This document shows positions 11,228-62,858 of a stretch of DNA of 64,000 nucleotides, one piece after another. This DNA is from a virus. The stretch is taken from positions 1-64,000 of IMG/VR virus record IMGVR_UViG_3300021171_000007; one strand, written 5' to 3'. Below the pieces are notes generated by a model that saw only the letters and a list, made by a program, of their open reading frames with translations, did no database searches and was not told the origin of the DNA. Position 1 is the first letter of the stretch. Every line of letters starts with the position of its first letter. Position numbers and translations under genes: made by a program.

Positions 11228-11727
11228 TTAATATCTGCCCAACATCTAAATGATGCTCGATAGATACCTGATCTCTCAAATGACGGTCTTGCAGGAGTGC
11301 TTCTACCACGCTTGCGCTTTTTACCGTGTGAAATCTTTGTAGGAACGCCTTCTACCATTCCGTTCATTTCTTCTTGGTCAAGAAAACCTCTAAACATTTT
11401 TTCAATATTTCTTGTTTTTGGATCCATAAATTTAACCATACGAGCACTAGAAGGCTTACGATAATGAGTTACAGCTTCCACTACAAAATCTTCAAATACT
11501 TCGGTAACAATATCACTAATTTCTTCATCATAAATGTCTATAAATGTACCAATAATACCATATCCCCACTCTAATATATCACCTACATCTTCAGCAGTTC
11601 TGTATTTTGTAGATCCACGATGGAATTTTTTGGCATGTGCTTTAACAGCAGCCACAGGTGCTTTCATATTCTGCATTGTATATGGAGTATTTAGAAACCC
11701 CATATGTATGACAATATCTCTTGCCAC
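11224..11727 (-). CDS. Head-tail joining / tail completion protein
   Basis: Basic C-terminus (RPSFERSGIYRASFRCW) typical of neck proteins; synteny. Confidence 0.5.
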   Translation of the reverse strand: MARDIVIHMGFLNTPYTMQNMKAPVAAVKAHAKKFHRGSTKYRTAEDVGDILEWGYGIIGTFIDIYDEEISDIVTEVFEDFVVEAVTHYRKPSSARMVKFMDPKTRNIEKMFRGFLDQEEMNGMVEGVPTKISHGKKRKRGRSTPARPSFERSGIYRASFRCWADIK

Positions 11728-11942
11728 TAGAACAAGTCACCATTTTTTGGAGGTTCTTGTTCGTCTGGTTGTATTCCAGGAAGTAATGGTGGAATATTTC
11801 CACCAGTCTTAACTACGATGCGCTGCGGAGCAGGCATGGTAGAAGCTTCTTGATCTGCCAAAGGCGGAGGATTATCAGCGATAACTACGCCAAAACGCAA
11901 TTTCGCATTTGCTGCACTCACATTTAGAAGGTGTTGAGGCAT
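11727..11942 (-). CDS. Hypothetical Pro-rich small protein ending KNGDLF
   Basis: ORF with AGGAG SD inside the structural operon. Confidence 0.5.
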   Translation of the reverse strand: MPQHLLNVSAANAKLRFGVVIADNPPPLADQEASTMPAPQRIVVKTGGNIPPLLPGIQPDEQEPPKNGDLF

Positions 11943-11951
11943 TGTAGCTCC

Positions 11952-12323
11952 TTAAGGAACAATCATTCCGTTGGAAGGTGGCGCTGCTGTAGTTCCAATA
12001 GTATTTGTTGCTGAAACAATGCAAGTCAAAGTAGTGCCTACATCAGCAGCCACAGCAGTATAATCTTCAAGATTTGCGCTTACTGTAATGGGCGCGCCAT
12101 TGCGTTGCCACCTAAAGGCATATGTATCAACTAAATCTCCCATATTCTCCCAATTACCAGTTGTACAATGATAAATGTTTCCAATACCACCCATATCAGT
12201 AAGTAAAGTAACAAATGGAACGTTAACATTAACAGGAGGATTTGTCTCTGGAGGCGCTGCAACATTGATATGCCACAGATGCGCTGCTTTCTTTTGAGTC
12301 ATTACTTGCGGATACTGCGGCAT
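11952..12323 (-). CDS. Ig-like domain virion protein
   Basis: TTGNW..YAFRWQRNGAPI..YTAVAADVGTTLTCIVSATN Ig-like repeat. Confidence 0.65.
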   Translation of the reverse strand: MPQYPQVMTQKKAAHLWHINVAAPPETNPPVNVNVPFVTLLTDMGGIGNIYHCTTGNWENMGDLVDTYAFRWQRNGAPITVSANLEDYTAVAADVGTTLTCIVSATNTIGTTAAPPSNGMIVP

Positions 12324-12332
12324 TTGAAACTC

Positions 12333-12656
12333 CTACGGAATGACAACAGGTACCCATGCGCCATCTTGCCGCACGTATGTTTGCCCATCACTAGGCGCAT
12401 CTGCTAGTCCGTCAGCTCCAGCTGGACCTGTAGCGCCCGTATTGCCAATAGGACCTTGAGGTCCTTGTGATCCTGTAGGGCCTGGATCGCCCTGTGGACC
12501 CGGATCGCCTTGAGGACCTGGGGGTCCTTCAGGACCGGGAGGGCCAACTGGACCGGGAGGGCCTGCTGGCCCTGGTGCTCCTGCCATTTGGAAATGCTCC
12601 ATAGTTTCAGCATATGCGATACCGCCTCTGCTGCCAGGTCCTGGGCCATATGGCAT
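12333..12656 (-). CDS. Collagen-like (Gly-X-Y) fibre with a foldon-like C-terminus
   Basis: ~19 GXY triplets followed by [17 protein letters not shown], resembling the T4 fibritin foldon. Confidence 0.8.
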
Positions 12657-12665
12657 CTAAGGCTC

Positions 12666-13766
12666 CTATGTCACATTAACTGTTAATGTACTTGGTTCAC
12701 CTATACCTATATCACTTTGAGCATAAAGAGTATATGTATAAGTACCTGATACTACAAGACTTTCATTCACTACTGTAACTATACCTGAACTATCTATATT
12801 AAATAAACCATTAGGGGTACTACCAGTTGGAACTATAGCCCAAGCATTTGGACTACCTGTTGCTACACATGTACCAACAATTTGTCCATTAATCACTGGA
12901 AGAGTAATATCAAATGTTGCTGGAGTAATAACTGGTTCAGGCGGATTTATAGTAACTTGATTAGAAGTAGAAACAGCAATGCCTCCACCTACAGCATTCG
13001 AGGCTTGAGCAACTCCACCAATTACTGTATTGGCATCATCTATTACTGTCGTATATTGACTTGTATTAGCACCAGATATATTAGAACCATTTCGTGTCCA
13101 TCCATAATAATAACTGGTTGGATTATTAGTCCAAGCTCCAGTACTCATTGATAATGTTGTACCAAAATCAACAGGACCAACAGGACTAATTGCTGGAAGA
13201 ACAACATTAACAGGTGGTCCCAGAATTGCAACCGTATTACTAGAAACTTCAGGTAAACTCTTACCACCATCATTATCAGCAGCTACAGTTGCACCAATAT
13301 TATTATTCCTATCAACAACAGTAGTTAAATATACAGCCGAATTTGCACCAGCAATAGGAAGACCATTTCTTGTCCATTGAATATCAAATCCTAAAGGATT
13401 ATTAGTCCAAATACCTACATTTACAGTTAATGGTAAACCTGAGTTTACTGGACCTACAGGCGTGATAGATGGCGGAGTTGTATTAACTGGAATTGGCGGA
13501 GGAGCAGGCGCTGTATCCCAGACAGGCATTGCATTGGGCGCACCTGAAATGTACACAGGAATGGCATTATTAGGATTGCCTTGATCAGTTCCAAACGGAG
13601 GAGTTCCTGGACCTGCTGTTACATAAACTGGGATTGGACCAGAAGCTGGACCTCCCGTTGCGCCACCAGCGACAAAATTCACTGGTATCGCCTTACCGCC
13701 TGGACCACCAACAAGATAGACTGGAATAGCTCCAGCAGGATTGTTGCGGTCATTAGGATAACCCAT
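12666..13766 (-). CDS. Ig-like repeat / cadherin-like virion appendage protein
   Basis: Likely start MGYPNDR at 13766 (overlaps upstream TAA); AIPVY repeats; two GxWTNNP..WTRNG Ig repeats; C-terminal FNIDSSGIVTV cadherin-like domain. Confidence 0.65.
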   Translation of the reverse strand: MGYPNDRNNPAGAIPVYLVGGPGGKAIPVNFVAGGATGGPASGPIPVYVTAGPGTPPFGTDQGNPNNAIPVYISGAPNAMPVWDTAPAPPPIPVNTTPPSITPVGPVNSGLPLTVNVGIWTNNPLGFDIQWTRNGLPIAGANSAVYLTTVVDRNNNIGATVAADNDGGKSLPEVSSNTVAILGPPVNVVLPAISPVGPVDFGTTLSMSTGAWTNNPTSYYYGWTRNGSNISGANTSQYTTVIDDANTVIGGVAQASNAVGGGIAVSTSNQVTINPPEPVITPATFDITLPVINGQIVGTCVATGSPNAWAIVPTGSTPNGLFNIDSSGIVTVVNESLVVSGTYTYTLYAQSDIGIGEPSTLTVNVT

Positions 13767-14251
13767 TATAGAGTCAATCCCCACATAGAACCGACACTTT
13801 GGGCAATACCCATATAGACGCGCCCCCAAGGTGTTTTCAACAACTGCAAATCACCAATAGTCAAATCTTTCATACTATTCAATAATTGCAATCCAGCACT
13901 CGTTCCTTGATCTGCTGCATTGTCAACAAGACCTGGAACAAAGCTATTAAGATTTAAACCAGCTCGCAAATCTGCCCAATATGTAGCTGCATTATCAGGA
14001 GGTGGAATAGCAGCAGGATCATCTTGTGCTATATTGACTAGAAAATTACCTGCCAAATTATAAACAGCAACAGTAAAAACCCCAGGATTTACCATATTTA
14101 TATATTGATTAACGAACTCATATGCTATATCATAAGACATTTGAATATAGATACTATCACTTGGAAGAACAGATGGAGGCACACCCATTACGCTATAGAC
14201 CCAATCTGTATATCCTTCTATTGTTGGAGGAGCTATATCTTGAAGAGACAT
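13766..14251 (-). CDS. Head-tail adaptor (DUF4054-like)
   Basis: AVYNLAGNFLV and LLKTPWGRVYM motifs; position after MCP. Confidence 0.7.
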   Translation of the reverse strand: MSLQDIAPPTIEGYTDWVYSVMGVPPSVLPSDSIYIQMSYDIAYEFVNQYINMVNPGVFTVAVYNLAGNFLVNIAQDDPAAIPPPDNAATYWADLRAGLNLNSFVPGLVDNAADQGTSAGLQLLNSMKDLTIGDLQLLKTPWGRVYMGIAQSVGSMWGLTL

Positions 14252-14805
14252 CAGAACATTGACCTTTTCTGTCCTGTACGGAACAGATCAGTCACAACGC
14301 CTAAAGGACTTCTACCGTCCTCTTGCGGCGCACCACGCTCTTTGGATCTTGTAATCGTAATTTTCTCAGCAATTTCCTGATCGCGATCTTTTCTTTGTAC
14401 CTCTGTAATCTCCATCTCGAACGCAGTAAGTTTCTCTCCAGCATTTTCCTCAATCTGTGCATTGACAGCAATAGCTGCTTCAGCACGAAGTCTTTCACCA
14501 GTCTTCTTATTCACTTCTCTATTATTGACAACAAGCTCAACAATCTTTTCAGCAGGAATAGGTTTATCAACTGAAAACATATAAGGAATAAAATATCCCT
14601 TAAATTGATCAATTTCTGTAACTCTGATCATTCCATATTTCATATGGAATTTTGCGATAATGTCTATTTGTTCCATAGACAAGTCGCCTGAAAGTCTAAT
14701 TTGACCTCCAATAGGTATCATCTGCCTGCGATAATTCTTAAATTCAGGCAAGCGATATTGGAAGTCAACGTTTTGGTGCGTGCCGTTTGCAACAAACATT
14801 TGCAT
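14251..14805 (-). CDS. Hypothetical protein downstream of MCP
   Basis: ORF with SD in the head module. Confidence 0.55.
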   Translation of the reverse strand: MQMFVANGTHQNVDFQYRLPEFKNYRRQMIPIGGQIRLSGDLSMEQIDIIAKFHMKYGMIRVTEIDQFKGYFIPYMFSVDKPIPAEKIVELVVNNREVNKKTGERLRAEAAIAVNAQIEENAGEKLTAFEMEITEVQRKDRDQEIAEKITITRSKERGAPQEDGRSPLGVVTDLFRTGQKRSMF

Positions 14806-14903
14806 TTGGAACTATCCTTGCTACCGTGGGCGGTCACGGGGTAGCAATCCGTAACCGCCCAGGATCGTCCAGGTTCGAGAAAGAGGATCTCTACAGCTGG
14901 AGA

Positions 14904-15932: not shown

Positions 15933-15988
15933 TGTAAGTTCACCTCATATTTGGGAGGCGTGTAGCGCCTCAGTTGCACAAGTTCCGA

Positions 15989-16630: not shown

Positions 16631-16670
16631 GACAGAAGTGCTCCTTAATGGTTACGGCCTATGAAGCGCC

Positions 16671-23470: not shown

Positions 23471-23998
23471 ATGCAAGATCTATTTGCCACACAAACACAA
23501 AACGATTTCAAGTGGGTAGTGGCAGTCTTTGCAAATACTGGCGCAACAGAAGCCATTCGAAAAGCTAACGATGTACCATTGAAAACATTTTATCCAATAC
23601 GATTTAATCAAAAAGGACTTCCAGTCCCTTTGTGGCGCCACTACTTATTCATTGAATTTCGCGACACGTTAACAGCTCAAGTATGTCGGAGCACTAAAAA
23701 ATTCATTAAAGTAATTACTATGCGTGATGAAGAAGGAATAGAATATCCAGTAATGGTACGTAAAAACGCTATTAATGAACATCTAGGATTATTACTATCT
23801 GGTAGATTTAATAGTAGATCAACAGTTAGACGTTATTACGGAAAAGGATCAATAGTTAGAGTATTGGAAGGTAATTTTATTGATAAGAAAGTACGATTGG
23901 AAACAGATGTACCTCCAAGTATGCCTGGTAATAAGAAAGTACAAATTGACATAGGTGGATTCAAAGCAAGCATCGAGATTTGGAAGTTAGCACTATGA
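23471..23998 (+). CDS. NusG/RfaH-family transcription antiterminator paralog
   Basis: NGN-like KWVV...TFYP...PLWRHYLFIEF; KOW-like GSIVRVLEGNF; ATG at 23471 after GGAGG. Confidence 0.8.
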   Translation: MQDLFATQTQNDFKWVVAVFANTGATEAIRKANDVPLKTFYPIRFNQKGLPVPLWRHYLFIEFRDTLTAQVCRSTKKFIKVITMRDEEGIEYPVMVRKNAINEHLGLLLSGRFNSRSTVRRYYGKGSIVRVLEGNFIDKKVRLETDVPPSMPGNKKVQIDIGGFKASIEIWKLAL

Positions 23999-25894: not shown

Positions 25895-28247
25895 ATGAGG
25901 TGCCAAAACTGCCACGGTAACGGACACGCTTGGAATATGTTAACCCAAGAATATCTCCTTTGTATGGAATGTCATGGCAGCGGCATAACATCATGTTGCG
26001 AAGGGAACCCAAATATGACTGAAGATAAAAATCATCCATTCGTATCAACACCAAATAATGGACCATGCTCCAGCTGCGGAAAATTACGTAGTGATTCAAT
26101 TCATCGTAGAATGTTTGAATGTGATGCAGAAGTTTATACGTGCCCATATTGTATGAAAGCTGTTGTGGTATATGTAGAATTAGATGGTAGTGGAGTCATT
26201 TCACACGAGAGCTATGATTTAATTGCTAATTGGGTATATCATTCCAAATGCTGGGATGAACAAATGCGTAAATTTCCGCCAGGAGAGCCAAATGCAAAAT
26301 GATCCACTTAAAGAAATCCAAGAGTTCAATAGAAAGCGTAATGAGCTATTTCGCAACCCAACATTGGAGGCGGCAACTGCACACCTAAAAGAAATGGGTA
26401 TTACTGGATTTGAAAGAGAAGATGTGCCATTAGCAACAGTTCATAAAGCACGCCTACAATGGCTAGAAGCTACAAATCAAATGATTACAGAGTCCATCGC
26501 ATGGCTAAAAGAACATGGCTACGAGACAACTTTTAAAGGAGCGCCACCACTCACGCCAGAGCAACGTGACTCAGACCGTATTGAGATCGGAAAGAAACCA
26601 TTAGGAGAAGAATGATGTTGGAAAAAGAATTAAAAGAGTCAGATGAAGTGCTCTTCAAAATTGTAGCTGATAATCTCGAAGCTTCCATAGAAAATGAATA
26701 TAATATGGATAGCTACACAGATGAAGAACTTGCTGGCGATCTATTGGCATATGCAGAAGATTGCTCAGAATATAGTATTGAATATCTAACAGCAGCAGTT
26801 CACAAATGGAGAAAGAAAAATGGGCGAAGCCAAAATAAAACGCCTTAAAATAAAGGCCAGAAATATTCTAAATACGGAGTTCCAGACTACTAGACTCAGT
26901 AGTGGCTGTGACTGCTTAAACTGCGGCATAGAAATTGATGCTGCTACCAGTGTTGGCCACAAAAACCTGCCACAAGAAGGTGCTATTGCCATCTGCATGA
27001 TATGCTCTCATATTATGGCATACGACGAGAAAATTCATCTGCGAGAGATGACAGACGAAGAATGTCTGACAATTGCTGGTGATCCAGAAATTCTCTTTCT
27101 TATCAACGGCCTAGGCAGCGCCAAGAAACACTGGGAAGAAATACATGGTAAAGACACGTGGGGCGCCAAAGCGCGGGAAAGGCTCGCTAGGCTCAAAGCT
27201 CAACAAAACGAAGAGAAAGCTAAGGAAGAATGAATATGAGTGCGCTGCCTGTCATGAGGTCTATGCCAAAGGAGTGTCTGATGAAGAGGCTTTGGCGGAA
27301 GCTGCGACGCTTTTTCCTACTGTTCCAATTGAGGATACTTCAATAGTCTGCGATGACTGCTTTCAGAAAATGATGGCAGACGTCAAAGCCCGCCCATGGG
27401 CATACCCACCCCTACCAGGAGATGATGATGGTAAGTGATTTGTTTGACGAACACGGAAAACGAAAGATGCGCCCAGGTAGTGGAGTGATACCGAAGCCAT
27501 TTGACAAAGTAGAACTTGAAATTGTGCGTGCTGATATGGCTGAATTAATAGCCAGAGAAAAAGAAAATGGCGATTGGGAAAAATGGCTTGAATCGCAGCG
27601 CCCAATTTCGCAACTGCGGTCGCTTGACCGCGATTTACTTACAATCTCAGTTACACTGACAGTTGATGGCCACGTCATTCCTACGCCTGTTGGTCTTCCA
27701 GACGCAATCATGGAAGAGATAAATGACAGATACCGCAACCGTTCAACGCACCGTCTGGAGCGCCAAGAAATGCCCAGCCGCATCGTAGCAATGGAAGCTG
27801 ATCGAGAAAGATTGGAGAGAATTCGATTTTACACAGGTCAAATTACTGCTGAGATCTTCGCTCATTATGTAGGCCGCCCACCACAGAATGATGATCTTAT
27901 GCGCGCCAATTGTAATCTAGCCGGCCAATTAGGACATTCCGCCTGCGGTTGGTGCGGAAGCTGCCAACGGCCCCGATTCATATGCAACCACCACGTGATA
28001 TCACCCAATGGACCAATGAGATGAAAACCAAAAAATGGAAGAAGCATATGCTTCAACTCATGAGGATCGCCCTGATTCCAGGTCCACCAGGCCCTAGAGG
28101 CGCCACTGGGCCCCAAGGTCCACAAGGTGTTCCAGGTCAGCAAGGCCCCATCGATTCATCAAACTATGACCTTGCTGAGCAGATCGCTTGGTTGAAGAAT
28201 GAACTAGCACAGTTGAAAATTGAAATTGACAGCTCAAGGAGGATTAG

Positions 28248-30514: not shown

Positions 30515-31999
30515 TCAAGCATCTGGCTTATACAAACTGAAATCAAAATCAGTATTGCCGCGTAAAACTGACCATTGACCATCTTCTGTTGACCATTGAA
30601 CCTTACCACCCAACTTACTTTCCAATGATCTTCTGACATCGGGACATAATGGAACTTCATATCCATTGCGTCTATTATCACGACTGTCTCTAATCTTGAT
30701 ATTCTCAACTACCATATCAGGTATCAAATCTGCTAATTGGCGACCAAATTTTCTTTCTGATAACTGGTGGCGCTTCCCAGCTGGAGAATGATTATAGTCA
30801 TTCAATAGCAGAGCTTTGATTACTTGCACTTTGCCATCCATCAATTCACCATAAGGCATTTCTTTGGAGTCTACAATACTATATAGCCATTCTTGGACTC
30901 CATTCATACTCTGTTGTTTCTGGAATATTAATTCTTCAGTAACAGGAGCTATTCTGAGATCAATATCATATTTATGATTGAGGAAATAATGCATGAGCGC
31001 GGCATTGCCGCCATTTTTAAACCAATTGTCAAGTTGGGCAAAGTATTTAGTATCACGTCTCTTATCTTCTGATGCATGAAGTGCGAATATGCGCCTAGCT
31101 TTGAATCCAGCGCTGACTAGCCATTCTGGATTACCAGTTATAAATAAATGAAGATGATTTGGAACTTCGTAAACTGGCACATATTTATCATTAATAGGTA
31201 ATGTGGGACCAGATATGATATCTTTTAATAATGATTCATCTTTCTTACTACCAGCCCAAACTGCCTCTTCCAAATGGAGTAATATACAGTTCTTCAATTG
31301 CCCGTTATGATCGCCAAATATGTATGCTGGATTTGATGTTTTAAATGTATATGGGCGCATCAATTCAGATAATTTCTCCACAAAGAATGATTTGCCTACA
31401 CCCTCATCTCCACGTATTACTACGGCTATGGCTGGTTTCAAATGAGGCTCTTGGAACATTTGGGAAATGAGTGCAATTAGATAATTGAAATTGTCTACAT
31501 TTCCACAACAAATGATATTATTCATTAAATCTAAGAATGGTATGACATCGCCCTCTTTTGATTCAATTCTATATCCTTTCCATAAATTATATTTATCATT
31601 TCTATTACCTAAATATGATGGATCGAAATCAAATCCGTATTTATAATGGCGACGTTCTGAACTGGCGAACCATACATCCGTAATTGGCACATATTTTGGA
31701 TCACCACCTTCGGTTGGCATTATCATAATACGTCTATCTGAATAACCAGCAACCAAATCTTTCTTATCCATTATTTCTAATGTGCCATCTGGATTCTCTC
31801 TGACTACTTTGAATCGCCCATTTAAATATATTGTAAAATGATCTTCATTTAATTCTAATATGGCATCTTTCTTTGGATCGCCAGTTCTGGTATATTCTCG
31901 TCTGGGCGCACCATGTTGATTTTGTTGATATCTTGGATCCTCAGTAAGTTTCTTAATACGTTCCAAATCTGGATATAGGTCGTCATCATCGTCAGCCAT
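30515..31999 (-). CDS. Primase-associated superfamily-3-type helicase (DUF5906-like)
   Basis: Walker A GDEGVGKS, LHLEEA, LFITGN, ARRIF; YNLWKGY. Confidence 0.8.
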   Translation of the reverse strand: MADDDDDLYPDLERIKKLTEDPRYQQNQHGAPRREYTRTGDPKKDAILELNEDHFTIYLNGRFKVVRENPDGTLEIMDKKDLVAGYSDRRIMIMPTEGGDPKYVPITDVWFASSERRHYKYGFDFDPSYLGNRNDKYNLWKGYRIESKEGDVIPFLDLMNNIICCGNVDNFNYLIALISQMFQEPHLKPAIAVVIRGDEGVGKSFFVEKLSELMRPYTFKTSNPAYIFGDHNGQLKNCILLHLEEAVWAGSKKDESLLKDIISGPTLPINDKYVPVYEVPNHLHLFITGNPEWLVSAGFKARRIFALHASEDKRRDTKYFAQLDNWFKNGGNAALMHYFLNHKYDIDLRIAPVTEELIFQKQQSMNGVQEWLYSIVDSKEMPYGELMDGKVQVIKALLLNDYNHSPAGKRHQLSERKFGRQLADLIPDMVVENIKIRDSRDNRRNGYEVPLCPDVRRSLESKLGGKVQWSTEDGQWSVLRGNTDFDFSLYKPDA

Positions 32000-41088: not shown

Positions 41089-42102
41089 ATGTACCTTATG
41101 GACAGCATCGTAGAAACAGTTCATGAAGCTAAGAAACGAAAATTGATACAACATCCTGTCATACAAATCTTCCCAATACTAGAAGAGAAATTGAAAGGAT
41201 GTCCTCGGTTCTTGTTTGACGATACTGCGATCAGAACGGCTGTGGAGCTTACTCTGGGGCGCCCCAAGGTGCTTAGGGAAGCCATGGCACACCTTACCAT
41301 TCCATATCCTAAGATATGGGTAGAATGGCCAGAAGCAGGAAGAGAAAAATTGAGACAGACGTTCTCAATAGACTCTTACGAGTATCCTAATCGACCACTA
41401 CCAACTCGTCTTGGCTTTCTGCTAGAGACAGATGAGTCTGGTAGGAAAGGTCAGGTAACTTGGGTTTGGAGTAATCATTTCATTAAGAAAGGTGAACCTC
41501 CGAATGTTGGTCCAATATCTGCGTTCTTCGATTTGGATTTCAACTACAGCAAGTTGGTAAGTCCGACTTTTGTCAATAGTTTCTTGGATGCTAACTTAGC
41601 GCATATTTGGAAGGACAACAAAATCCAATTGGAGGCGCTCCTTAGCATCTGGGACACAGCTTACCATCAACCGTCCGAATGGGGTGCAAGATTTCTGAGA
41701 ATTCCTTCTCCAGATTCTCCGTATGGAAGCGTAGATTCTCGCGTAGCCAATTTCTATGCGGACGTTTATGGCGAATACATTATGGTTTGGTCATGCTTGT
41801 TATTGTTGACATCTTCCAGAAAGATAGTTGAATTGGAAGAAGTTGATATGTCTCAACTAAATAAAATACGCAGAAGAATGGATAAACCTCAAAGGTTAGA
41901 CCATACCACAGTTAGTCTCTATATCAATAGAGATAATGTGATACACAAACAAGGTGTACCACTAGGATTTGAACGAAAGAGTCCGCGTATCCATATGGTT
42001 GGGTCATATCTTAATAGACGTGGCGATAAACATTGGATAGTCCAGCCTTTCTGGCGCGGCGAAGGTGAGGTTATCAGTCGTCATGTAAAAGTGAAAGGAT
42101 AG
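41089..42102 (+). CDS. Hypothetical protein (337 aa)
   Basis: Long ORF; PYPKIWVE and SPRIHMV..WIVQPFWRG motifs of a recurring phage family; function not recognised. Confidence 0.6.
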   Translation: MYLMDSIVETVHEAKKRKLIQHPVIQIFPILEEKLKGCPRFLFDDTAIRTAVELTLGRPKVLREAMAHLTIPYPKIWVEWPEAGREKLRQTFSIDSYEYPNRPLPTRLGFLLETDESGRKGQVTWVWSNHFIKKGEPPNVGPISAFFDLDFNYSKLVSPTFVNSFLDANLAHIWKDNKIQLEALLSIWDTAYHQPSEWGARFLRIPSPDSPYGSVDSRVANFYADVYGEYIMVWSCLLLLTSSRKIVELEEVDMSQLNKIRRRMDKPQRLDHTTVSLYINRDNVIHKQGVPLGFERKSPRIHMVGSYLNRRGDKHWIVQPFWRGEGEVISRHVKVKG

Positions 42103-46950: not shown

Positions 46951-47151
46951 ATGAAAGAAGATTTTGAATATTATCCACACCAGATCGACGAAGATCATTG
47001 GGTAGTATTCAAAGTCAATACTTATCATTACAAAGAACCTGAGAAAGTGTATGTAATAAAACGTTGGGGAGGTGAGATGCACTGTGATTGCCCAGCAGGT
47101 GGGCGCTGCAAGCATTTAAGTATGATACAACCAAAGAAAGAACTATTCTAA
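46951..47151 (+). CDS. SWIM zinc-finger protein
   Basis: YVI..CDCPAGGRCKH. Confidence 0.6.
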   Translation: MKEDFEYYPHQIDEDHWVVFKVNTYHYKEPEKVYVIKRWGGEMHCDCPAGGRCKHLSMIQPKKELF

Positions 47152-49212: not shown

Positions 49213-50457
49213 CTAACTGGAGCCAAATAGATCCTTATCGGCGTGAGAGATGACAGGTCTGTTTCTCTCCGCCTCCTCCATCATTCTGTTATAATCTTCT
49301 TCCCACATGACTTCGCCTATCCACGGCGGCTTAAATCCATTCTCCTTTGCTGCCCATATAAGACCTCCAAGACTTTTAGTCCCATTTCTAGGAAATTCTG
49401 GGCGATGCGATTTCCATTGCCGCATAAAGTAACCTTGGCCGCGCCCCATTACACCGTATCTGGCGCCGCCGCTTACAGCTTCAAGAAACAATTCTGTTGC
49501 CTCATCAATTGTTAGTTGATTTGCTTCATTTTCGTCATGTATCGCTCCTATTAATGGTAGCATTACATGAAGTGTGTACCATTCGTTTGTGTCTGCCAAT
49601 CCTTCGTCTCGAATGAACTCTATACATGCCAACGCTTTCTTGTATGCTGTCCATTTGGAATCTTTGCGAGGTATAAATGGTTGTCTCTGCGACTGTGCGC
49701 GAATTGGCGTTATATTTGGCACTTTTAATCTCAATTCATCAATGCTATGTTTATAACAATAATTTCTGGCTATGTGTGCTAACGCTACTTGCTGGCCTTT
49801 GGTTTGCTTCTCTAATTTTGGATAATTTACCGTTCCTGGAAGACGCATCACTCGGTCTACGTTGGACATATTATCAACTTTGACTGGAAGATGTGCTACT
49901 TTGGAACGTAAGAACGTCTCAAAATCATGCCCAAGATTAGTAACGAATGAGCGCATTTTAATTGATCCTAAATTAGCAGCTTTTTTCTGCTCAGTATCTG
50001 CTGGATTAAATAATTTGACACCTTCTCTCCTATTGAGAAGATAGATAAGGTGAAAGCCGCCGCCAGTATTAATAACTAGCGATGGTTTTAATTCAAGTTC
50101 CTTATCTATAAAATCCAAAACCTTTTGTTGATCTCTTTCAAAAGAAGTAAAATCTATATCAAATGCTAAGGCTCTGATACCTATGATATCATCTATATTA
50201 TTTTTGCCACCCTTGCCTTGTCTATCAAAAATCTTACATGGTATGTTAACACTGTAATAAACATTGGACTTACGAGCTTGGCGCTTCTTAATGTCTGCAA
50301 TCAATAATTCTCTTTGTTCCTTTTCAAAGGTGCGCCCAGCTTCCCAGACTGGGCCGTTATCAGGTCCGCCAAATGGCGCTTCAGAAGCTATTGTATGGCG
50401 CCCATTAGGCTCTAGGATGTCAAGAAATTGAAGAGCTTGCTCGATATTGAGTTCCAT
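49213..50457 (-). CDS. RepB-like / AEP-type DNA primase
   Basis: NVYYSVN, LAFDID, VINTGGGFHLIY, RVMRLPGTVN; PriCT-like C-terminus. Confidence 0.75.
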   Translation of the reverse strand: MELNIEQALQFLDILEPNGRHTIASEAPFGGPDNGPVWEAGRTFEKEQRELLIADIKKRQARKSNVYYSVNIPCKIFDRQGKGGKNNIDDIIGIRALAFDIDFTSFERDQQKVLDFIDKELELKPSLVINTGGGFHLIYLLNRREGVKLFNPADTEQKKAANLGSIKMRSFVTNLGHDFETFLRSKVAHLPVKVDNMSNVDRVMRLPGTVNYPKLEKQTKGQQVALAHIARNYCYKHSIDELRLKVPNITPIRAQSQRQPFIPRKDSKWTAYKKALACIEFIRDEGLADTNEWYTLHVMLPLIGAIHDENEANQLTIDEATELFLEAVSGGARYGVMGRGQGYFMRQWKSHRPEFPRNGTKSLGGLIWAAKENGFKPPWIGEVMWEEDYNRMMEEAERNRPVISHADKDLFGSS

Positions 50458-50721
50458 CTTACTCTCCCTTTTTCACAGCTTTAATTTGTATTGATCTTAA
50501 ATTCTTGGCTGTTTTAATTGTCTTAGATTGTTGAGCACTAAATTCTTTATATGTCTCAGTAAGTTCTTCATAATTATGTTTTAATAAAATATAAATAGCG
50601 TCATAAAGTCTTAATGATTCATCGTAATTAGCCTTGGCTTTTTCCCAATTCTTTTTTGCACGATCGTATTCATCTGTAAACAGATCTGGCATAATTTCTA
50701 TTTCTCCTTATTGCCTAAATT

Positions 50722-51869: not shown

Positions 51870-53015
51870 ATGTTTCTGGATAAGATCTATAAAAAGGACG
51901 TTTCTGGCAATATAAGAGTTTGGCAAGCCGAAGTGGGGGAAGGTGAATGGGAAGGTTGCTGGAGATCGCATCACGGTACTTTAAATGGGCAAATCCAAAC
52001 AACACAATGGACAGAAGTAGAATTAAAATCACAATCATCTATAATGGAGCAAGCTATATTTTATGCCAATGCAGAAATGAAAAAGAAATTGAAAATAGAT
52101 TACAAACTCAATATCGAAGATATAAATGAGTCTCGAATGAGTTTTATTAAACCGATGTTAGCTCATACATATGTAGGATGGGAGCGCCCATGTTTTGCTC
52201 AACCTAAGCTAGATGGCGTTCGATGCTTGGCAAATGTAGATGGGCTTTGGACGCGCACCAATAAGCAGATCATTTCTACACCTCATATCGAGGGAGAATT
52301 GAAGGCATTTTTTGAAGATCATCCAGAAATTATTTTAGATGGAGAATTATATAATCACGACCTGCATGATAACTTCAATAAGATAATTTCTTTGGCTCGA
52401 AAGACTAAGCCTGAGTTTGCGGACTTAGAAGAGTCAGCAGAGCTTATAGAATATTGGATATATGATATGTTTAATCTAGAAAATTCTGACTCTATATTTG
52501 AAGAGAGATGGGATTATATACATGACAATTTATTTAATCTAGATCATAATATAAATATGATAAAAGCAGTTCCAACTCGGTTTGTTACAACGGAAGATGA
52601 GTTGGATATATACAATCAAGAACTCTTATTGGACGGATATGAAGGACAAATTGTGCGCCACAATGTTGCATATCAACAGAAGCGCACAGATAAACTTCTC
52701 AAACGAAAAGAGTTCGTTGACGAAGAATATGAACTAAAATCAATTGAAGAAGGAGCAGGGCAATGGAGCGGCTATGCAAAAATAGCTGTTTGCCAATTAC
52801 CAGATGGCAGAGAATTTAGAGCAGGTATATCTGGAACACAAGAATTCACATTACAACTTTTGGAGGAAAGAGAGAAGTATCATTCTGTTACGGTGAAATA
52901 TCAAGCATTAACTCCAGATGGAATTCCTCGCTTTCCAATAGCTATAAAGTTTTGGGAAGAAATGTTTGATAGACTAGACGAAGTTCTCAAACCGAAACGT
53001 GATCTTTTCGCATAG
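51870..53015 (+). CDS. lig: ATP-dependent DNA ligase
   Basis: PMLA, QPKLDGVRC, LDGELY, YEGQIVR, LLKRK, GIPRFP. Confidence 0.9.
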   Translation: MFLDKIYKKDVSGNIRVWQAEVGEGEWEGCWRSHHGTLNGQIQTTQWTEVELKSQSSIMEQAIFYANAEMKKKLKIDYKLNIEDINESRMSFIKPMLAHTYVGWERPCFAQPKLDGVRCLANVDGLWTRTNKQIISTPHIEGELKAFFEDHPEIILDGELYNHDLHDNFNKIISLARKTKPEFADLEESAELIEYWIYDMFNLENSDSIFEERWDYIHDNLFNLDHNINMIKAVPTRFVTTEDELDIYNQELLLDGYEGQIVRHNVAYQQKRTDKLLKRKEFVDEEYELKSIEEGAGQWSGYAKIAVCQLPDGREFRAGISGTQEFTLQLLEEREKYHSVTVKYQALTPDGIPRFPIAIKFWEEMFDRLDEVLKPKRDLFA

Positions 53016-53025
53016 GAGTTTGGTA

Positions 53026-53841
53026 ATGAACGAAGTGCAAACAACGACCCAAGGTCAACTAGCTTTAGATGATGAACTCTTATCGCTAGGAGGGATGGGA
53101 ACTGAGAATGTAAAGTCCAAAGACGTTCTTATTCCACGCCTAGTCATTCTGCAAGCACTGTCTCCTCAATTGAACAAAAAGAAAGCAGAATACATTGAGG
53201 GTGCAGAGATCGGTGATTTCTGCAATGTGGCAACTGGTGACATTTACAAGGAATCAGTTCTCGTTGTTCCTTGCCATTTTACTACGGATTATATTGAATG
53301 GACAAAGAACCGCGGTGGCTTAGCAGCAAACCACGGAGACGATGCTTCAATTTTGAAGCACACTGTCAAGAACGACAAGAACGAGAACGTATTGACGAAT
53401 GGTAACATTGTCCAAGAAACGGCACAATGGTATTGCCTTCTGCAAGATGGCGCCTCATGGTCAAGAATTTTCTTTCCGCTTAAGGCAACCAACCTAAAGC
53501 ACTCAAGAAAATGGCTTACATTATGCAGAGCAGAAGTGGTACAACTTCCGAATAACGAACTTTGGAAGCCGCCCCTTTTTTGGCGATCTTGGAAGTTGGA
53601 TATTATCAGTGATGGAAACGACCAAGGTGATTGGTACACATTTAGGCCAGTTAAGGGCGAATTAATAATGGATCTTGATCCAAGTAAGCAACTCATTAGA
53701 CTGTGCAAGTCATTTTACGAAGATATTCGTACCAACGTTGTTCGTCCTGATATTGAAACAACTCAAGACGAAACTGGTCCTATTATTGAAGGGAGAGCAA
53801 ATCCAAAAACAGATCCAACCGAAAAGGATATACCATTCTAA
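53026..53841 (+). CDS. ssDNA-binding / annealing protein
   Basis: IPRLVILQALSPQL..YIEGAEIGDF family motif; SSB-like C-terminal KDIPF. Confidence 0.6.
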   Translation: MNEVQTTTQGQLALDDELLSLGGMGTENVKSKDVLIPRLVILQALSPQLNKKKAEYIEGAEIGDFCNVATGDIYKESVLVVPCHFTTDYIEWTKNRGGLAANHGDDASILKHTVKNDKNENVLTNGNIVQETAQWYCLLQDGASWSRIFFPLKATNLKHSRKWLTLCRAEVVQLPNNELWKPPLFWRSWKLDIISDGNDQGDWYTFRPVKGELIMDLDPSKQLIRLCKSFYEDIRTNVVRPDIETTQDETGPIIEGRANPKTDPTEKDIPF

Positions 53842-53911: not shown

Positions 53912-53927
53912 ATAGTGAGGAGATGAA

Positions 53928-54374: not shown

Positions 54375-55003
54375 GGAGCATGGGAAGGCTAGGTTCGGTA
54401 GAAGTCCGATTGAAGTCCCTTCAATGAGCAACGCCTAGCATAGCAATGGACTGATCGCGCCTAATCGGAATGGAGGTAGACATGTCCTGAAGGGCATACT
54501 GAGGACCGGGGACATACGAGGTCCATGAGAGATTGAGAACACCGTGGAAATAATCCGTAGTAGCGAAAGCTAGTGTAACTCAAACCAGGCCGTTTTGCCG
54601 CTATACCAATGCGGAGTGCTGTAAACAGCAATTAGGCCAAATGAGGGAGATATGGGAATAAGATTAACATATCTCCCTCTCACTAATATAGAAAAGCTAG
54701 AACGATGGCTTAAATTGGAGGTTGTAGTGGACTATAAAGAATTTGATTGCATAGATTGTAATTGCCATGTATATACATGGGCAGATGATGACAGAGAACG
54801 ATGTGCAGTTTGCACATGGATTAATCAATTGCCTGATCTAACGCAAAACGAAATTGATGAGATACGTGTTATGACTGCAACTCCTATACTTCCCAAATAT
54901 AGAGATGATAATTTTCCTGAAAGAAATTGCGACTATTGTGGCAATTTATATAAAGGCCCAGCAGTTTATTGCAGCCATGCATGTGCAATGAAGGACGCTT
55001 AAC

Positions 55004-55558
55004 ATGAACGACGATATTCGTGATCTTTTCGGATTTGTTGCGCCATCTCAAGAGCAGTTGACGTCCATATCGAAATGGGCGAGTAAGGCTTTAGAGCTAC
55101 AAGCTGAGATTGAGCAAGTTGAGGCGCACCTAAAAGAATTGAATAGAGAATTAGCCCAAATCGAAGAAGTAGATTTGCCCAGAGCAATGATGTCTGCTGG
55201 CTCGGAAGAATTTACTATGACAGGAGGCGGCAAGATTTCCATAGACGATGTTATTCAGGGCAGTCTAGCTAAAGGTGAAGAAAAGCGGGAATATGCGATC
55301 CAGTGGGTGGCAGAAAATGACGGCCAAGAAATTATAAAAAGACATTTCGAGATAGATTACACCAGAGGCCAGCATTCCTATGCGATGGCATTACGTAAAC
55401 TGCTCGAAGAAAATCAGGTACATTTTGACGAGTTTGAGAGCATTCACACTAGCACCTTCAAAGCATTTCTGCGTGAGAAGTTAAGAAAGAATATCATGCC
55501 ACCCTTCGATAAGATGGGTTTTCGCTTTTTTAAAAAAGCTATTATCAAACCAAAGTAA
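55004..55558 (+). CDS. Conserved phage replication-module coiled-coil protein
   Basis: IEEVDLPRAM..IHTSTFKAFLRE pattern. Confidence 0.55.
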   Translation: MNDDIRDLFGFVAPSQEQLTSISKWASKALELQAEIEQVEAHLKELNRELAQIEEVDLPRAMMSAGSEEFTMTGGGKISIDDVIQGSLAKGEEKREYAIQWVAENDGQEIIKRHFEIDYTRGQHSYAMALRKLLEENQVHFDEFESIHTSTFKAFLREKLRKNIMPPFDKMGFRFFKKAIIKPK

Positions 55559-57749: not shown

Positions 57750-57921
57750 AATTAAATTGGGCAGAAGAACTTGCCCTAGATGTATCAATGTGTTATCAGC
57801 AAGGAAAGGTGGCGCGACAAAAGAATGAAAGCAGGTTCGACAATCCATATATGCAAAAGAAATTCACATACGAAAAAGCATGGGATCAAGGTTGGGTAGA
57901 TGAGGACGGTCTTATAAATCA

Positions 57922-58368
57922 ATGATAGTTGTTGTTGATCTCGATCATACTGTGTCTGACGCGTTTTGGCGCGACAGTATGATAGGTGTCAATCCTTGGG
58001 ATGAATATTACGAAAACGCTAAGTACGATAAGCCATTCAAGAACGTAGCTAATTTAATCAATTCTCTTTCTGCTATGAACTACGAGATTATAGCATTTAC
58101 TGGAAGACCAGAAAAATTTAGAACTCTAACAGTCAGTTGGTTAGTTCGTAATAGAATTGACATAGATACTATCTTGATGCGCCCAGACGAGGATTATACC
58201 AAAAATAGCGAGTTGAAACTTAGATTAATCAAAGAACATTTTAAGGATAGATTTTATCAAATACATTTTATTATTGACGATAATGAGGAATCAGTATTAG
58301 AATTTTACAAATTGGGGATACCTACACTTCAAATAAGAAACGTAAGACCAAAGGATCTCTTCGCGTGA
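57922..58368 (+). CDS. HAD-family phosphatase (PNKP phosphatase-like)
   Basis: VVDLDHT, FTGRPE, LMRP, IIDD. Confidence 0.8.
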   Translation: MIVVVDLDHTVSDAFWRDSMIGVNPWDEYYENAKYDKPFKNVANLINSLSAMNYEIIAFTGRPEKFRTLTVSWLVRNRIDIDTILMRPDEDYTKNSELKLRLIKEHFKDRFYQIHFIIDDNEESVLEFYKLGIPTLQIRNVRPKDLFA

Positions 58369-59173: not shown

Positions 59174-59707
59174 ATGATCGCTACAGTATTTGACACAGAA
59201 ACAACTGGGTTAATCATTAACCCAGCTCGTAAATTGGATACACAGCCTGAGATCATATCTCTGGCAATGCAATCATTAATTGTGCCTAGTGGTGAATTAC
59301 AAGTATCATATTATAAAGTATTTAAACCAAAGAAACCTATCCCAGAAGAGATCACAAAGATAACTGGATTTACTAATGACTCTGTCTCTGGTGCGCCACC
59401 AATTAAAGATCATTTGGAAGATATAATTGTTTTCTTAGAAACATCAGAATTAATCATAGGTCAAAATCTAGGTTTCGATATGAGTATGATAGAGTTAGAA
59501 TGCCAAAGAGACAATAGACGAATTAAATGGCCAAAGAAACTTGATCTTGTTGCCAGCACAATACACCTTAAAGGCTATCGTTTGAGTCTTAAAAACCTTC
59601 ATACAGAATTGTTTGGAGTTGCATTTGAAGATTCACATACCGCAGATGCAGACGTTGCAGCAACCGTGAGATGCACTGTTGAATTATATAAGCGCGGCTT
59701 GTTATGA
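59174..59707 (+). CDS. dnaQ: DEDDh 3'-5' exonuclease (Pol III epsilon-like)
   Basis: VFDTETTGL, GQNLGFD, HTADAD. Confidence 0.85.
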   Translation: MIATVFDTETTGLIINPARKLDTQPEIISLAMQSLIVPSGELQVSYYKVFKPKKPIPEEITKITGFTNDSVSGAPPIKDHLEDIIVFLETSELIIGQNLGFDMSMIELECQRDNRRIKWPKKLDLVASTIHLKGYRLSLKNLHTELFGVAFEDSHTADADVAATVRCTVELYKRGLL

Positions 59708-59966
59708 AGAAGGTAAAGTATTACGTGTCCAGATACAACAGACATGAGGCAGAAATCCCAGAAACGTGGGAAGAGGCACGAAATATGTTAGAACATGTTA
59801 TGAAGAATTATAATAGCCATCGTGGCGGCAATAATGAGCGTCTCTCAGTTGCATGTCGCGTTGCTTTTGGTATGTTCAATAAAGATAATTTGATACCTGA
59901 TCCAACACATGCCTTGATGTTTTTAATGATGAAAATTTGTGAGCGCAAAGGAGCAGGGCTTGACAA

Positions 59967-62858
59967 ATGAGAATCAAGTCAGAATATAGTTTTCGTCACG
60001 CATACGGAAAAATTGAAGATGTTCATAATAGAGTGCTACAGTGTGACTGGTTAGCAGCGCCCATTTCAGATCGTTTGTCTACATTCGGATTTACAGATTG
60101 GGATAAACTATGTGATGAAGTTAAAGTAAAACCCGTGTTTGGTGTAGAGCTTGGAGTGACTCCACTTCTAGGCCAGAAGAAACCGCCAGTATCTTACTGG
60201 ACCTTTTTCGCCACAAGCAAGCTCCGCACCATTAATGAATTAGTTCTAAAGGCAACATCCAAAACAGGATATTATCCAGTCTTATCTTATGAAGAAGCTA
60301 TTCTTACAGAAGAAGTAATCAAGATTGCTGATAATAAATTGTTGCTGTCTGAAATCTATCCTCATGAGTATTTTTTTATTGCCTTGTCTCCATCCACTCC
60401 TATTGGCTTATTCAGAGAAGCAAAGGCTAAAGGATTTCAATTTATAGCTAGTAGTGATAATGTTTTTACATATCCAGAAGATAAATTGCCATATCATACC
60501 TTAATAGGTAAGAACTCAGAAACATCTCTATTTCCACAGTACATTATGACAGATGAAGAATGGCGAGCGGCGCTCCCATATTGTGTAACAGATATTGACG
60601 CACAATGTGCGATAATCAATAGAGACTTTGCATTGGATATTTGTAATGCCAAATTGCTTAAGGCTGACATTTTCCGACCTTCTCATAATTATTCATTAAG
60701 ACAGATGTGCGAAGATGGCGCATCAAAGTTGGGAATAGATTTAAATGATCCAATTTATGCAGAACGATTGGATCGAGAAATACAATTAATTGAGGAAAAG
60801 AACTTCCAAGACTATTTCTATATCGTAGCAGATTTGGTTGCTTATGCCAAAGAACACATGATCGTAGGACCGGGCCGTGGCTCATCTTCTGGTAGTCTGC
60901 TCTGTTATCTTTGTGGTATTACAAACGTCAATCCTATTAAATTTGGCCTTCTCTTCGAGAGATTTATCGACGTCACGAGGGCAGATCTTCCTGACATTGA
61001 TCTTGATTTTAGCGACGCTAAACGGCATTTGGTTTTTGACTATATTAAAGACAAGTATGGAGTTGAACATGTGGCGCGGCTAGGCTCAGTTATGAGCTAT
61101 AAGCCAAGATCAATTCTCAATACAGCAGGACAATCTTTGGGTATACCAAAGTGGCTGTGCGACAAGGTAGCTGACACACTTATCGAGCGATCATCAAAAG
61201 ATTCCCGTGCGCTCCAATCATTTGAGGAGACTTTCTCTGACACAGAAATCGGAAGGAAACTACTCACGGAATATCCAGAAATTTCAGCAGTATTTGAAGC
61301 TGAAGATCATGCAACTAATGCTGGCCAGCACGCAGCCGGTATCGCCATTACTAGTGGTGAAGTATTGGACTATGTTGCTATTGATGGTCGGACTGGCGGA
61401 ATCATGGCAGATAAATATGATGCAGAAGTTCTCAACATTCTTAAAATTGATATTTTGGGTCTATCTCAATTATCCGTTTTTGAACGAGCTTTAGAACTAA
61501 TAGGTGAACAGCCAAAGAACGGTTTCCTTGAGGCGCTCCCGTTAGATGATCAAAAAGCGTTCGACGTATTGAATAAGAAACAGTTCTCAGGTATATTTCA
61601 AGCAAATGGAAAGAGTTTGCAAATTTTGTTTCAATCTATTCATACGGATAGATTAGGAGATTTGGTAGCTATCACTTCTTTGTCGCGCCCAGGGCCAGTT
61701 GCTGCTGGTGGAGCAGTCCGTTGGACACGTAAAAGAATGGGGACAGAACCTGCTACATATCATCATCCTATGCTAATTCCATATTTGGAAGTTACATATG
61801 GAGAGGTAGTTTATCAAGAGCAGGTGATGTCTATCTGTCGCGATGTTGGCAAAATGGACTTTCGCGGCGTTACTAAGATCAGAAAGGCTATGTCCAAATC
61901 TTTGGGCGTAGAAGAAATGAAGACGTTAGGTGAGCCATTTAAGAAAGGCGCGTTTGAGAATGGATTAGATGAAAAGACGATAGACACTATTTGGGCAGAA
62001 CTAATCCAAATGGGTGCTTGGTCGTTTAATCTGTCACATGCACTTTCGTATTCTTTGATAACGTATTGGTGTTGTTGGCTTAAAGCGTATCATCCTGTAG
62101 AATTTGCAGCAGCCACATTAGACAATGAGTACGAGCCTATGAAGCAACTCAGATTGCTTCGTGAGCTAGATATGGAAGGTATCAAATACAAACCGTTAGA
62201 TATTGAGAAGTCTACAGAGCGATGGAATATCAAAGAAGAGGATGGTAAGAAAATCCTCGTTGGTCCTCTTACGAATATCAAGGGTGTCGGTCCAGTTACG
62301 GTGCGTAAGATATTGGAGTCACGCAAACCTGGTGGCGCACCATTAACTCCTGCCATAATGGCAAAACTGCAAACTGCATCAACAAAGATAGACTCACTCA
62401 CTCCTATTAGAGATGCAATCAACAAAATACATCCAGATTTAAGTAAGATCAATATTATATCAGAGCCTACGCCTATATGTGATCTCTATGCAGGATTGAA
62501 TGATCAATACACAATTCTTGGGCTTGTCAAAAAGATACAGCCTCGGGATGAAAATGATCTTCATTCATTAGCAAAGAGAGATGGCAGAAGAATTGAGGGT
62601 CCATCTTGGAGTCTTAATCTGTTCGTGCATGACGATACTGATGAGATTTTGTGCAAGATTGATAGATATGACTATTCTACTTCAGGTAAGAAAATTGAAG
62701 AAATAGCTGGTGCAGGTGATTCTTTGTATGCCATTAGAGGACGCATACCAAGAGGCTTTAGAATGATCTTAATTTCAAATATTAGGTATCTTGGTAAGAT
62801 GTCTGATCTAGAAATTAAGATGCAGCCGAAGATGAAAGGTCCAGATCTTTTCGCATGA
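59967..62858 (+). CDS. dnaE: DNA polymerase III alpha subunit (family C)
   Basis: PHP-like N-terminus; GPGRGSSSGSL, LLFERF, LPDIDLD, HAAG, KIDILGL, SRPGP, FNLSHA. Confidence 0.95.
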   Translation: MRIKSEYSFRHAYGKIEDVHNRVLQCDWLAAPISDRLSTFGFTDWDKLCDEVKVKPVFGVELGVTPLLGQKKPPVSYWTFFATSKLRTINELVLKATSKTGYYPVLSYEEAILTEEVIKIADNKLLLSEIYPHEYFFIALSPSTPIGLFREAKAKGFQFIASSDNVFTYPEDKLPYHTLIGKNSETSLFPQYIMTDEEWRAALPYCVTDIDAQCAIINRDFALDICNAKLLKADIFRPSHNYSLRQMCEDGASKLGIDLNDPIYAERLDREIQLIEEKNFQDYFYIVADLVAYAKEHMIVGPGRGSSSGSLLCYLCGITNVNPIKFGLLFERFIDVTRADLPDIDLDFSDAKRHLVFDYIKDKYGVEHVARLGSVMSYKPRSILNTAGQSLGIPKWLCDKVADTLIERSSKDSRALQSFEETFSDTEIGRKLLTEYPEISAVFEAEDHATNAGQHAAGIAITSGEVLDYVAIDGRTGGIMADKYDAEVLNILKIDILGLSQLSVFERALELIGEQPKNGFLEALPLDDQKAFDVLNKKQFSGIFQANGKSLQILFQSIHTDRLGDLVAITSLSRPGPVAAGGAVRWTRKRMGTEPATYHHPMLIPYLEVTYGEVVYQEQVMSICRDVGKMDFRGVTKIRKAMSKSLGVEEMKTLGEPFKKGAFENGLDEKTIDTIWAELIQMGAWSFNLSHALSYSLITYWCCWLKAYHPVEFAAATLDNEYEPMKQLRLLRELDMEGIKYKPLDIEKSTERWNIKEEDGKKILVGPLTNIKGVGPVTVRKILESRKPGGAPLTPAIMAKLQTASTKIDSLTPIRDAINKIHPDLSKINIISEPTPICDLYAGLNDQYTILGLVKKIQPRDENDLHSLAKRDGRRIEGPSWSLNLFVHDDTDEILCKIDRYDYSTSGKKIEEIAGAGDSLYAIRGRIPRGFRMILISNIRYLGKMSDLEIKMQPKMKGPDLFA

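Follow-up and report, generated by a model that had tools for sequence, protein, structure and literature searches.

Many bacterial proteins, including DNA polymerases II, III, IV and V, MutS and Hda, bind the beta sliding clamp through a short peptide with the consensus QL[S/D]LF (also QLxLxL). In the alpha subunit of Escherichia coli this motif reads QADMF (PMC3201878). Mobile elements have found the same ring: transposases of insertion sequences (PMC4549789), as well as TnsE of Tn7 and the protein of the RmInt1 intron (PMC6698660), bind the clamp via degenerate motifs. Among phages, the gp45 clamps of T4 and RB69 have gp43, gp33 and gp55 as clients (PMC2988020), and two transcription factors of phage Mu, MuC (with QHDLF after the initiating Met plus QPDLF at its C-terminal end) and Mor (which has DLF alone), bind the clamp of E. 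coli and lose their function upon Leu to Ala changes (PMC12867686). Here, we describe a set of otherwise unrelated proteins that carry the tripeptide Asp-Leu-Phe (DLF) at or near one end and that are encoded within a stretch of 64,000 nucleotides, the window, which is the first part of the 79,611-bp IMG/VR record IMGVR_UViG_3300021171_000007. CheckV rates the record as complete, a sequencing-run search found the DNA of the window in two soil-metagenome DNA runs and listed no RNA run, and a search at the DNA level returned no near-identical cultured phage; the source is an uncultured soil phage of about 80 kb.

Clamp-binding peptides, phage clamp clients and the use of the host clamp by Mu are already known. 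What sets the present case apart is a minimal [K/R]DLF code that extends over the proteome of a phage with a C-family DNA polymerase but no detected clamp, the visible evolutionary assembly of this code through gain, loss and duplication, and its presence on a factor with the NusG/RfaH fold. The DLF tails very probably serve to dock their carriers on a single shared partner, and we lean towards the beta sliding clamp of the host (DnaN) as that partner.

Enrichment of DLF at the ends of proteins

The phage genome (G000; coordinates preceded by the word genome lie beyond the window) was compared with those of two relatives, G001 (75 kb, proteins about 90% identical) and G002 (80.6 kb, complete, proteins about 70% identical). 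Further relatives were gathered from IMG/VR loci by means of DnaE and the gp33-like protein, together with five whole or partial records. Genes were called by a codon-usage score and every tripeptide was tested, using the hypergeometric distribution, for over-representation among the six C-terminal residues of the proteins. DLF is the top-ranked C-terminal tripeptide among about 450 tested in this genome, with five of its 14 copies in that position (p = 7e-6), and it again ranks first in G001 (6 of 13 copies; p = 1.6e-7) and in G002 (6 of 7; p = 4.3e-10). The 14 copies compare with 3.75 expected from composition, and 13 of them lie no more than 20 residues from an end, as against 6 of 24 copies of the five anagrams of DLF (Fisher p = 1e-4). 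Conversely, the three genomes have 1, 0 and 0 copies located deep within proteins, with about 3 expected in each; this scarcity suggests avoidance, but the evidence is weak since the three genomes are related. No other recurrent terminal motif emerged when the outgroup loci and those from metagenome-assembled genomes (MAGs) were scanned.

An earlier note on this DNA had listed ten DLF or ELF termini on about ten unrelated proteins and had read them as a common code for docking to a clamp. All ten are present in the sequence as written, and the codons do vary between genes as the note had claimed, with Leu encoded by CTT, CTC, CTA or CTG (also TTG) and Phe by TTC or TTT. Two lines of evidence favour the proposed code, namely a terminal enrichment far above chance and the conservation of DLF in orthologs whose flanks and codons drift; the part that fits poorly is the canonical first half of the motif, Gln plus a hydrophobic residue, which most tails lack.

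Some copies do not belong to the set. Those in 14251-14805 and in genome 72032-72478 were set aside as incidental, as they are not conserved in relatives, and the copy in genome 68290-68970 is matched in the close relative G001 only. An ELF/ELY sequence near the C-terminus of the exonuclease was also rejected as a tail; it is part of a conserved helix that tail-less phages have too.

Conservation, gain and loss of the tails

DLF is invariant while the residues that precede it, the number of residues that follow it and the codons change, even between proteins that are only 34-48% identical. In the C-terminal tails, the Phe is followed by nothing or by A, AA, G, GSS, S, N, I or K. When substitutions are found, D prevails over E and L over M, whereas F is nearly always kept (Y occurs once); ELF and DMF are the main variants, and DVF, DAF, NLF and DDF are rare. 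The tails lie past the ends of the Pfam domains and the tail-less orthologs stop at the domain boundary. Moreover, outgroup contigs share the core module of the phage (gp34-like and gp33-like proteins, oxidoreductase, ThyX, HAD protein, exonuclease, DnaE and SNF2 protein), and none of these shared proteins carries a DLF tail in the outgroup; nor are there DLF tails in the cultured DnaE phages Ss1 and XcP1. The tail is therefore a novelty of a single clade, which was attached to already complete domains and has been retained by selection ever since. Gain, loss and tandem duplication of this kind are the typical behaviour of short linear motifs. A 291-aa protein of G002 (54394-55269; L051:14394-15269), with no Pfam match, ends in GKDLFI only in the lineage of G002, G003 and G005.

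Replication and repair proteins with DLF tails

The carriers of the peptide are listed in Table 1. The polymerase, DnaE, is matched by the Pfam profiles PHP, DNA_pol3_alpha, finger and HHH_6, and aligns with the alpha subunits of E. coli and Taq only up to the HhH region, at about residue 790; the comparison with bacterial alpha gave no alignable tau-binding domain or internal clamp motif. A tail of 19 residues extends beyond its OB-like last domain. DLF is found in the tail of 48 of 52 DnaE homologs, as a single copy, as a copy with eight further residues behind it, or as a tandem pair (..NDLFAVKKDLFGVVK and ..NDLFTNKDLFA), the two copies being about 7 residues apart; in some tails, 8-22 residues follow the Phe. 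The DnaE proteins of the outgroup (46-52% identity) stop at ..IRYLGDL.., without a tail. In six homologs (P0225, P0227, P0236, P0241, P0246 and P0247), DLF is followed by a conserved element (K/Q)KPFL(I/M) and an acidic C-terminus, a different tail architecture within the same DnaE clade.

In the ATP-dependent ligase (PHROG 114), the Pfam domains DNA_ligase_A_M and OB_2 end at residue 359, and in alignments with the ligases of cultured phages the similarity stops near residue 364 of its 381. The tail that follows, ..[KR][KR]DLF[ASG], is kept in relatives down to 60% identity, in the versions KPKRDLFA, KPRKDLFA, KPARDLFA, KTKKKDLFG and TPRKDLFS. The phosphatase is covered by HAD_PNKP from residue 2 to 139, and its tail is found only in relatives of at least 74% identity. 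It is absent from G002, G003, G005, L033, L034 and L004, whose proteins stop at ..LQIRNI or, in the case of L034 and L004, a few residues later; here the tail looks like a module that has been gained or lost. The AEP-primase-like protein has no match in Pfam, PHROGs, NCBIfam or among PDB sequences. Sequences resembling AEP motifs (AFDIDF, GGGFH and RLPGTVN), read by eye, make its identity as a primase plausible, and the protein may represent a divergent primase family. Its tail, ..[KR]DLF[GSN], is kept down to 66% identity, with DDF in two relatives and no tail in one. Lastly, the D5-like helicase, in which a weak copy is possible, begins with MADEDLFP in G001, while the proteins of G002, G003 and G005 have ..NLF at the C-terminus instead.

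Table 1. Proteins with terminal DLF or related peptides, and the gp34-like protein, in the window (motif positions are those of the three codons).
Protein	Position	Strand	Terminal peptide	Motif position	Remark
71-aa open reading frame (ORF)	11727-11942	-	ends PKNGDLF-COOH	11730-11738	structural module
NusG/RfaH-like factor, 175 aa	23471-23998	+	N-terminal MQDLFA	23477-23485	NGN + KOW
200-aa protein	27422-28024	+	starts MMMVSDLF	27437-27445	lineage-specific copy
D5/VapE-like helicase	30515-31999	-	N-terminal MADDDDDLYP		DUF5906 (Pfam); possible weak copy
Zinc-finger protein, 62 aa	32234-32422	-	ends KKRDLFAA	32243-32251	four Cys (CxxC ... FCSxxC)
SWIM zinc-finger protein, 66 aa	46951-47151	+	ends PKKELF-COOH	47140-47148	
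AEP-primase-like protein, 414 aa	49213-50457	-	ends DKDLFGSS	49225-49233	
Helical protein, 77 aa	50459-50692	-	starts MPDLFT	50678-50686	just upstream of primase-like gene
ATP-dependent DNA ligase, 381 aa	51870-53015	+	ends KPKRDLFA	53001-53009	
Pam3 gp34-like OB-fold protein	53026-53841	+	ends ..EKDIPF		Pfam PF23977; not a DLF carrier
DUF7307 / Pam3 gp33-like protein, 184 aa	55004-55558	+	N-terminal MNDDIRDLFGF	55022-55030	Pfam PF23984
HAD phosphatase, PNKP type, 148 aa	57922-58368	+	ends RPKDLFA	58354-58362	
DnaE C-family DNA polymerase, 963 aa	59967-62858	+	ends KMKGPDLFA	62844-62852	

A NusG/RfaH-like factor with DLF at its N-terminus

The first gene of the rightward block codes for a protein with only 35 relatives in a profile search of 1.8 billion representatives, and for which no homolog was found in cultured phages. 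It has no Pfam match, and its sequence match to UpxY is below threshold (E = 9e-4; 19 bits, with a cut-off of 100). Because a profile search of the PDB with the family alignment also came back empty, its identity had to be sought by fold. The AlphaFold (AF2) model computed on the family alignment, an NGN alpha/beta domain with a KOW beta-barrel after it, has a predicted local distance difference test (pLDDT) score of 83, and the listed ones among its top 24 Foldseek matches are all NusG, RfaH or Spt5 (probability 1.0; best E = 1e-6), which bears out the label of NusG paralog that the earlier note had given it. Residues 1-10 score only about 48 and are predicted to be disordered. It is in this segment that the motif lies: the protein starts with M-Q-D-L-F in five genomes, from ATG, TTG or GTG, each placed 6 nt after GGAG, and the codons for the Asp, Leu and Phe differ synonymously among the five. 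All 13 family members with a credible called start begin with M-x-[D/E/G]-[L/M/A]-F, and in seven of these a second peptide of the kind occurs 10-15 residues further on (MRDLF..YDLF; MLDMF..TDMF). The narrow family of NusG/RfaH fold comprises the protein of the window and proteins P0057-P0087.

Small and other carriers

Searches of Pfam, PHROGs, NCBIfam and the sequences of the PDB gave no match for three small carriers, the SWIM protein, the 77-aa helical protein and the 71-aa ORF, nor for many of the early proteins. The SWIM protein has the signature CxCx5CxH (CDCPAGGRCKH), and its orthologs, at 34-43% identity, keep PKK[DE]LF at the extreme C-terminus, in one case with one extra residue. 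The helical protein, whose ATG is preceded by a ribosome-binding site of the GGAG type, keeps MP[DE]LF in orthologs at 35-37% identity. The ORF has an ortholog in G001 (62% identity) that ends in QNGADLF; none was found in G002. In the 62-aa zinc-finger protein, ..DLFAA is kept at 42-48% identity. A paralog of the latter (genome 66108-66290; L023:4108-4290), 40% identical over 35 aa, holds a canonical QLDLF 13 residues from its end, in this genome only.

For two other proteins, the status of the peptide is less clear. The 55 homologs of the gp33-like protein that were compared share D[LMVA]FGFxAP, and because the motif is here inside a longer conserved block, DLFGFxAPSExQLS, the DLF of this protein may be partly structural; the versions found in the outgroup read DIDLL and DIDYF. 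The 200-aa protein reads MAYDLF in G001, and there is no DLF at this position in G002 and G005.

The host clamp as the probable partner

We infer from these observations that the terminal [K/R]-D-L-F peptides would be a short linear docking motif carried by flexible extensions of phage proteins that are unrelated in other respects. That DLF is a minimal form of the beta-clamp-binding motif, read by the DnaN of the host, seems to us the most likely of the readings considered. Positions 3-5 of the clamp motif are [S/D]-[L/M]-F, and every conserved carrier has this form (DLF, varied mainly to ELF or DMF); because the variation observed, D/E, L/M and F, matches these positions, it supports the clamp. 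Like the bacterial motif, DLF is a short peptide of disordered termini or loops, lying beyond the Pfam ends or in the poorly modelled first residues of the NusG-like factor, and it is used at either end of a protein in the same orientation. The carriers that belong to replication, repair or replication-coupled processes are DnaE, the ligase and the PNKP phosphatase, recognised by profiles, the D5-like helicase, the AEP-primase-like protein, from motifs read by eye, and the NusG-like factor, recognised by fold. Polymerases, ligase and repair proteins are classic clamp clients, which supports the host clamp, and one paralog carries QLDLF itself. The differences from the bacterial motif are that positions 1-2 are usually Lys, Arg, Pro or Gly and not Gln-Leu, and that the whole set is phage-encoded.

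The earlier note had also envisaged a phage clamp elsewhere in the genome. None was detected: in G000, G001 and G002, all near-complete, no protein scores over the cut-off with the DnaN, PCNA and gp45 profiles (PF00712, PF02768, PF02916 and PF00705), and an 11-bit match in an ORF of the tail region of G002, below the cut-off, was discarded. It is possible that these phages have a clamp diverged beyond the reach of profiles. Since no phage clamp was detected in the three genomes, the host clamp or an unrecognised protein is left as the candidate.

Several observations weigh against the host clamp. Most tails lack the Gln at position 1 and the hydrophobic residue at position 2, and have K-R, P-K, G-P, D-K, N-G or K-K there; the full QLDLF occurs only in genome 66108-66290, and the NusG-like factor has a Gln directly before the Asp. 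Mor of phage Mu also lacks positions 1-2, yet needs its DLF (PMC12867686). Tandem copies about 7 residues apart are too close to span the two pockets of a clamp dimer. Two scans of 185,579 genomes for the host gave no close relative. Furthermore, tails are missing from related DnaE phages that share the replication module, which implies that polymerases of this family do not in general require the host clamp, and hence that the hub could be a phage protein specific to the clade. Finally, several phage proteins of 300-360 aa are without any annotation.

These last points favour another reading, to which we give a minor share of the probability: the tails would dock on a hub encoded by the phage and missed by current profiles, such as a new type of processivity factor that serves the C-family polymerase. 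The confinement of the tails to one clade, with an outgroup that has the same core module and no tails, fits co-acquisition with a clade-specific partner, and the basic residue before DLF and the absence of Gln depart from the canonical motif. Conserved proteins without annotation, such as 41089-42102, genome 64584-65540, 33677-34762 and others, could supply the hub, and it is not settled by what means the DnaE polymerases of phages become processive (PMC3201878). Yet none of the three genomes gives a clamp-like profile match, and the spectrum of DLF, DMF and ELF, together with the precedent of Mu, fits DnaN without an extra assumption.

Moreover, the best conserved candidate, the gp34-like protein, has an OB fold. 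This most conserved unknown partner of DnaE was considered as a hidden clamp and rejected, as its model (pLDDT 84) is an OB fold and not a ring; the best fold match is gp3 of PhiC31, a recombination directionality factor (Z = 7.7), followed by the OB folds of single-stranded DNA-binding protein (SSB) and RPA, with no clamp among the matches. Its C-terminal tail is disordered and ends in DIPF, like the tip of bacterial SSB; this end is found in 38 of 120 homologs, and many others end in x-[P/A]-[F/M]. The gp34-like protein is probably the single-stranded DNA-binding protein of the phage and a second, separate terminal-peptide system.

In its wider form, with [K/R]DLF read by an unrecognised hub of phage or host origin, a new processivity and organising factor acquired by one clade of DnaE phages, the idea of another hub is likewise unlikely. 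If it were true, this hub would be the assembly platform for the polymerase, the ligase, the primase and the repair enzymes as well as for a NusG-like antiterminator, and the processivity of clamp-less C-family phage polymerases would be explained.

We consider it improbable that another hub of the host is involved, be it the partners of SSB-coated DNA, RNA polymerase or the replicative helicase, or that the tails compete with the tip of host SSB. DLF does resemble the D-I-P-F of the SSB tip, being acidic, then hydrophobic, with a Phe near the end, and both sit on disordered tails; and since the OB-fold protein of the phage has a true DIPF tip, hubs for terminal peptides are in use. With SSB (..DDDIPF), though, it is the one hub that carries the peptide and many interaction partners that read it, and reading depends on acidic flanks and on a final Phe whose carboxylate is free. 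The gp34-like ..EKDIPF agrees with this description and the DLF tails do not: they have 0-3 residues after the Phe (8-22 in some DnaE proteins), basic flanks, and N-terminal copies.

Lower still do we rate a degron that would time the proteolysis of early or middle phage proteins, a weak alternative. Exposed hydrophobic peptides at termini are typical of protease tags, and some tails end in Ala or Ala-Ala, but the same tripeptide stands in the same orientation at N- and C-termini, the residues after the Phe vary in a manner unlike that of known end-specific tags, and essential replication enzymes keep, and even duplicate, the tail. Chance, composition or faulty gene calling can be dismissed for the set as a whole: some copies are indeed incidental (14251-14805, genome 72032-72478, and 27422 beyond near relatives), but the p values of 7e-6 to 4e-10 in an unbiased scan, the anagram control and the conservation at 34-48% identity speak against them, and C-terminal positions hinge on stop codons only.

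A proposed model for clamp borrowing and its implications

If the host clamp is the partner, DLF would fill the hydrophobic pocket that lies between domains II and III of DnaN and is used by the last three residues of QL[S/D]LF, and a phage that brings a polymerase without a clamp would borrow the ring of its host for processivity. DnaE would grip a host-loaded beta ring via its C-terminal DLF, while the ligase, the PNKP phosphatase, the AEP-like primase and the small zinc-finger proteins might exchange on the same clamp pockets, so that the enzymes of ligation, end repair and priming, and a transcription elongation factor, would be concentrated on replicating phage DNA. The NGN domain of the NusG-like factor would bind RNA polymerase and its DLF would tether it to clamps left on replicated DNA, favouring processive transcription of replicated genomes, possibly of the structural operon of about 35 kb; an action on structural or late genes is suggested by analogy with T4 and Mu. 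With so many peptides that bind it, the clamp could also lose the host proteins it normally carries.

A close parallel is with Mu, in which transcription factors of the phage that have (Q)xDLF at a terminus use the host clamp and transcription is coupled to replication. The factor described here has the NusG/RfaH fold and not that of the Mor/C family, and whereas Mu has no polymerase of its own, here the peptide is also found on a phage polymerase, a ligase, a primase-like protein and repair enzymes. In T4 and RB69, too, one terminal peptide is common to the polymerase and transcription factors, and T4 couples late transcription to replication; T4, however, encodes both clamp and loader, while no clamp gene was detected here. 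The peptide of the T4 clamp clients is SLDFLF-like, unlike the DLF tails. The clamp binders of mobile elements likewise illustrate how selfish elements evolve degenerate clamp peptides to use the host replisome, but they are single proteins with internal, longer motifs and do not constitute a proteome-wide terminal code.

Should the host clamp prove to be what the tails bind, this clade of phages would be the clearest case yet of a virus that has built replication, repair and transcription around a borrowed host ring, and has done so with one minimal code of three residues. It would offer a concrete answer to how clamp-less C-family phage polymerases obtain processivity, and the NusG/RfaH-like factor would be the third independent coupling of transcription to replication, after gp33/gp55 of T4 and MuC/Mor of Mu. 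The ease with which tails are gained, lost and duplicated shows how new enzymes can plug into a replisome, and a proteome-wide scan for terminal motifs is a simple route to such hubs in uncultured viruses.

The phage genome and its possible host

Structural genes on the minus strand occupy 1-23 kb of the window and, beyond it, 68-79.6 kb. After those at 1-23 kb comes a long block of small early genes on the plus strand, and then a module for replication and nucleotide metabolism: the AEP-primase-like protein, the ATP-dependent ligase, the Pam3 gp34-like and gp33-like proteins, an FAD oxidoreductase and ThyX, continuing with the HAD/PNKP phosphatase, a DEDDh exonuclease, DnaE and a SNF2 helicase. 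A search for tRNA genes found none in the phage, and the scans for relatives in bacterial genomes returned either nothing or relatives of at most 35% identity in mixed MAG bins. The nearest matches point in different directions, that of TerL being in cyanophages, that of the capsid protein in phages of enterobacteria and that of the ligase in phages of alphaproteobacteria. Beyond the window, genome 67054-67776 codes for a 240-aa phage protein in which Pfam recognises a PEP-CTERM sorting signal (E = 1e-7), a hint that the host may be Gram-negative and possess an exosortase. Taken with the similarity of TerL, gp33 and gp34 to proteins of a Pseudanabaena phage, it makes a cyanobacterial host possible.

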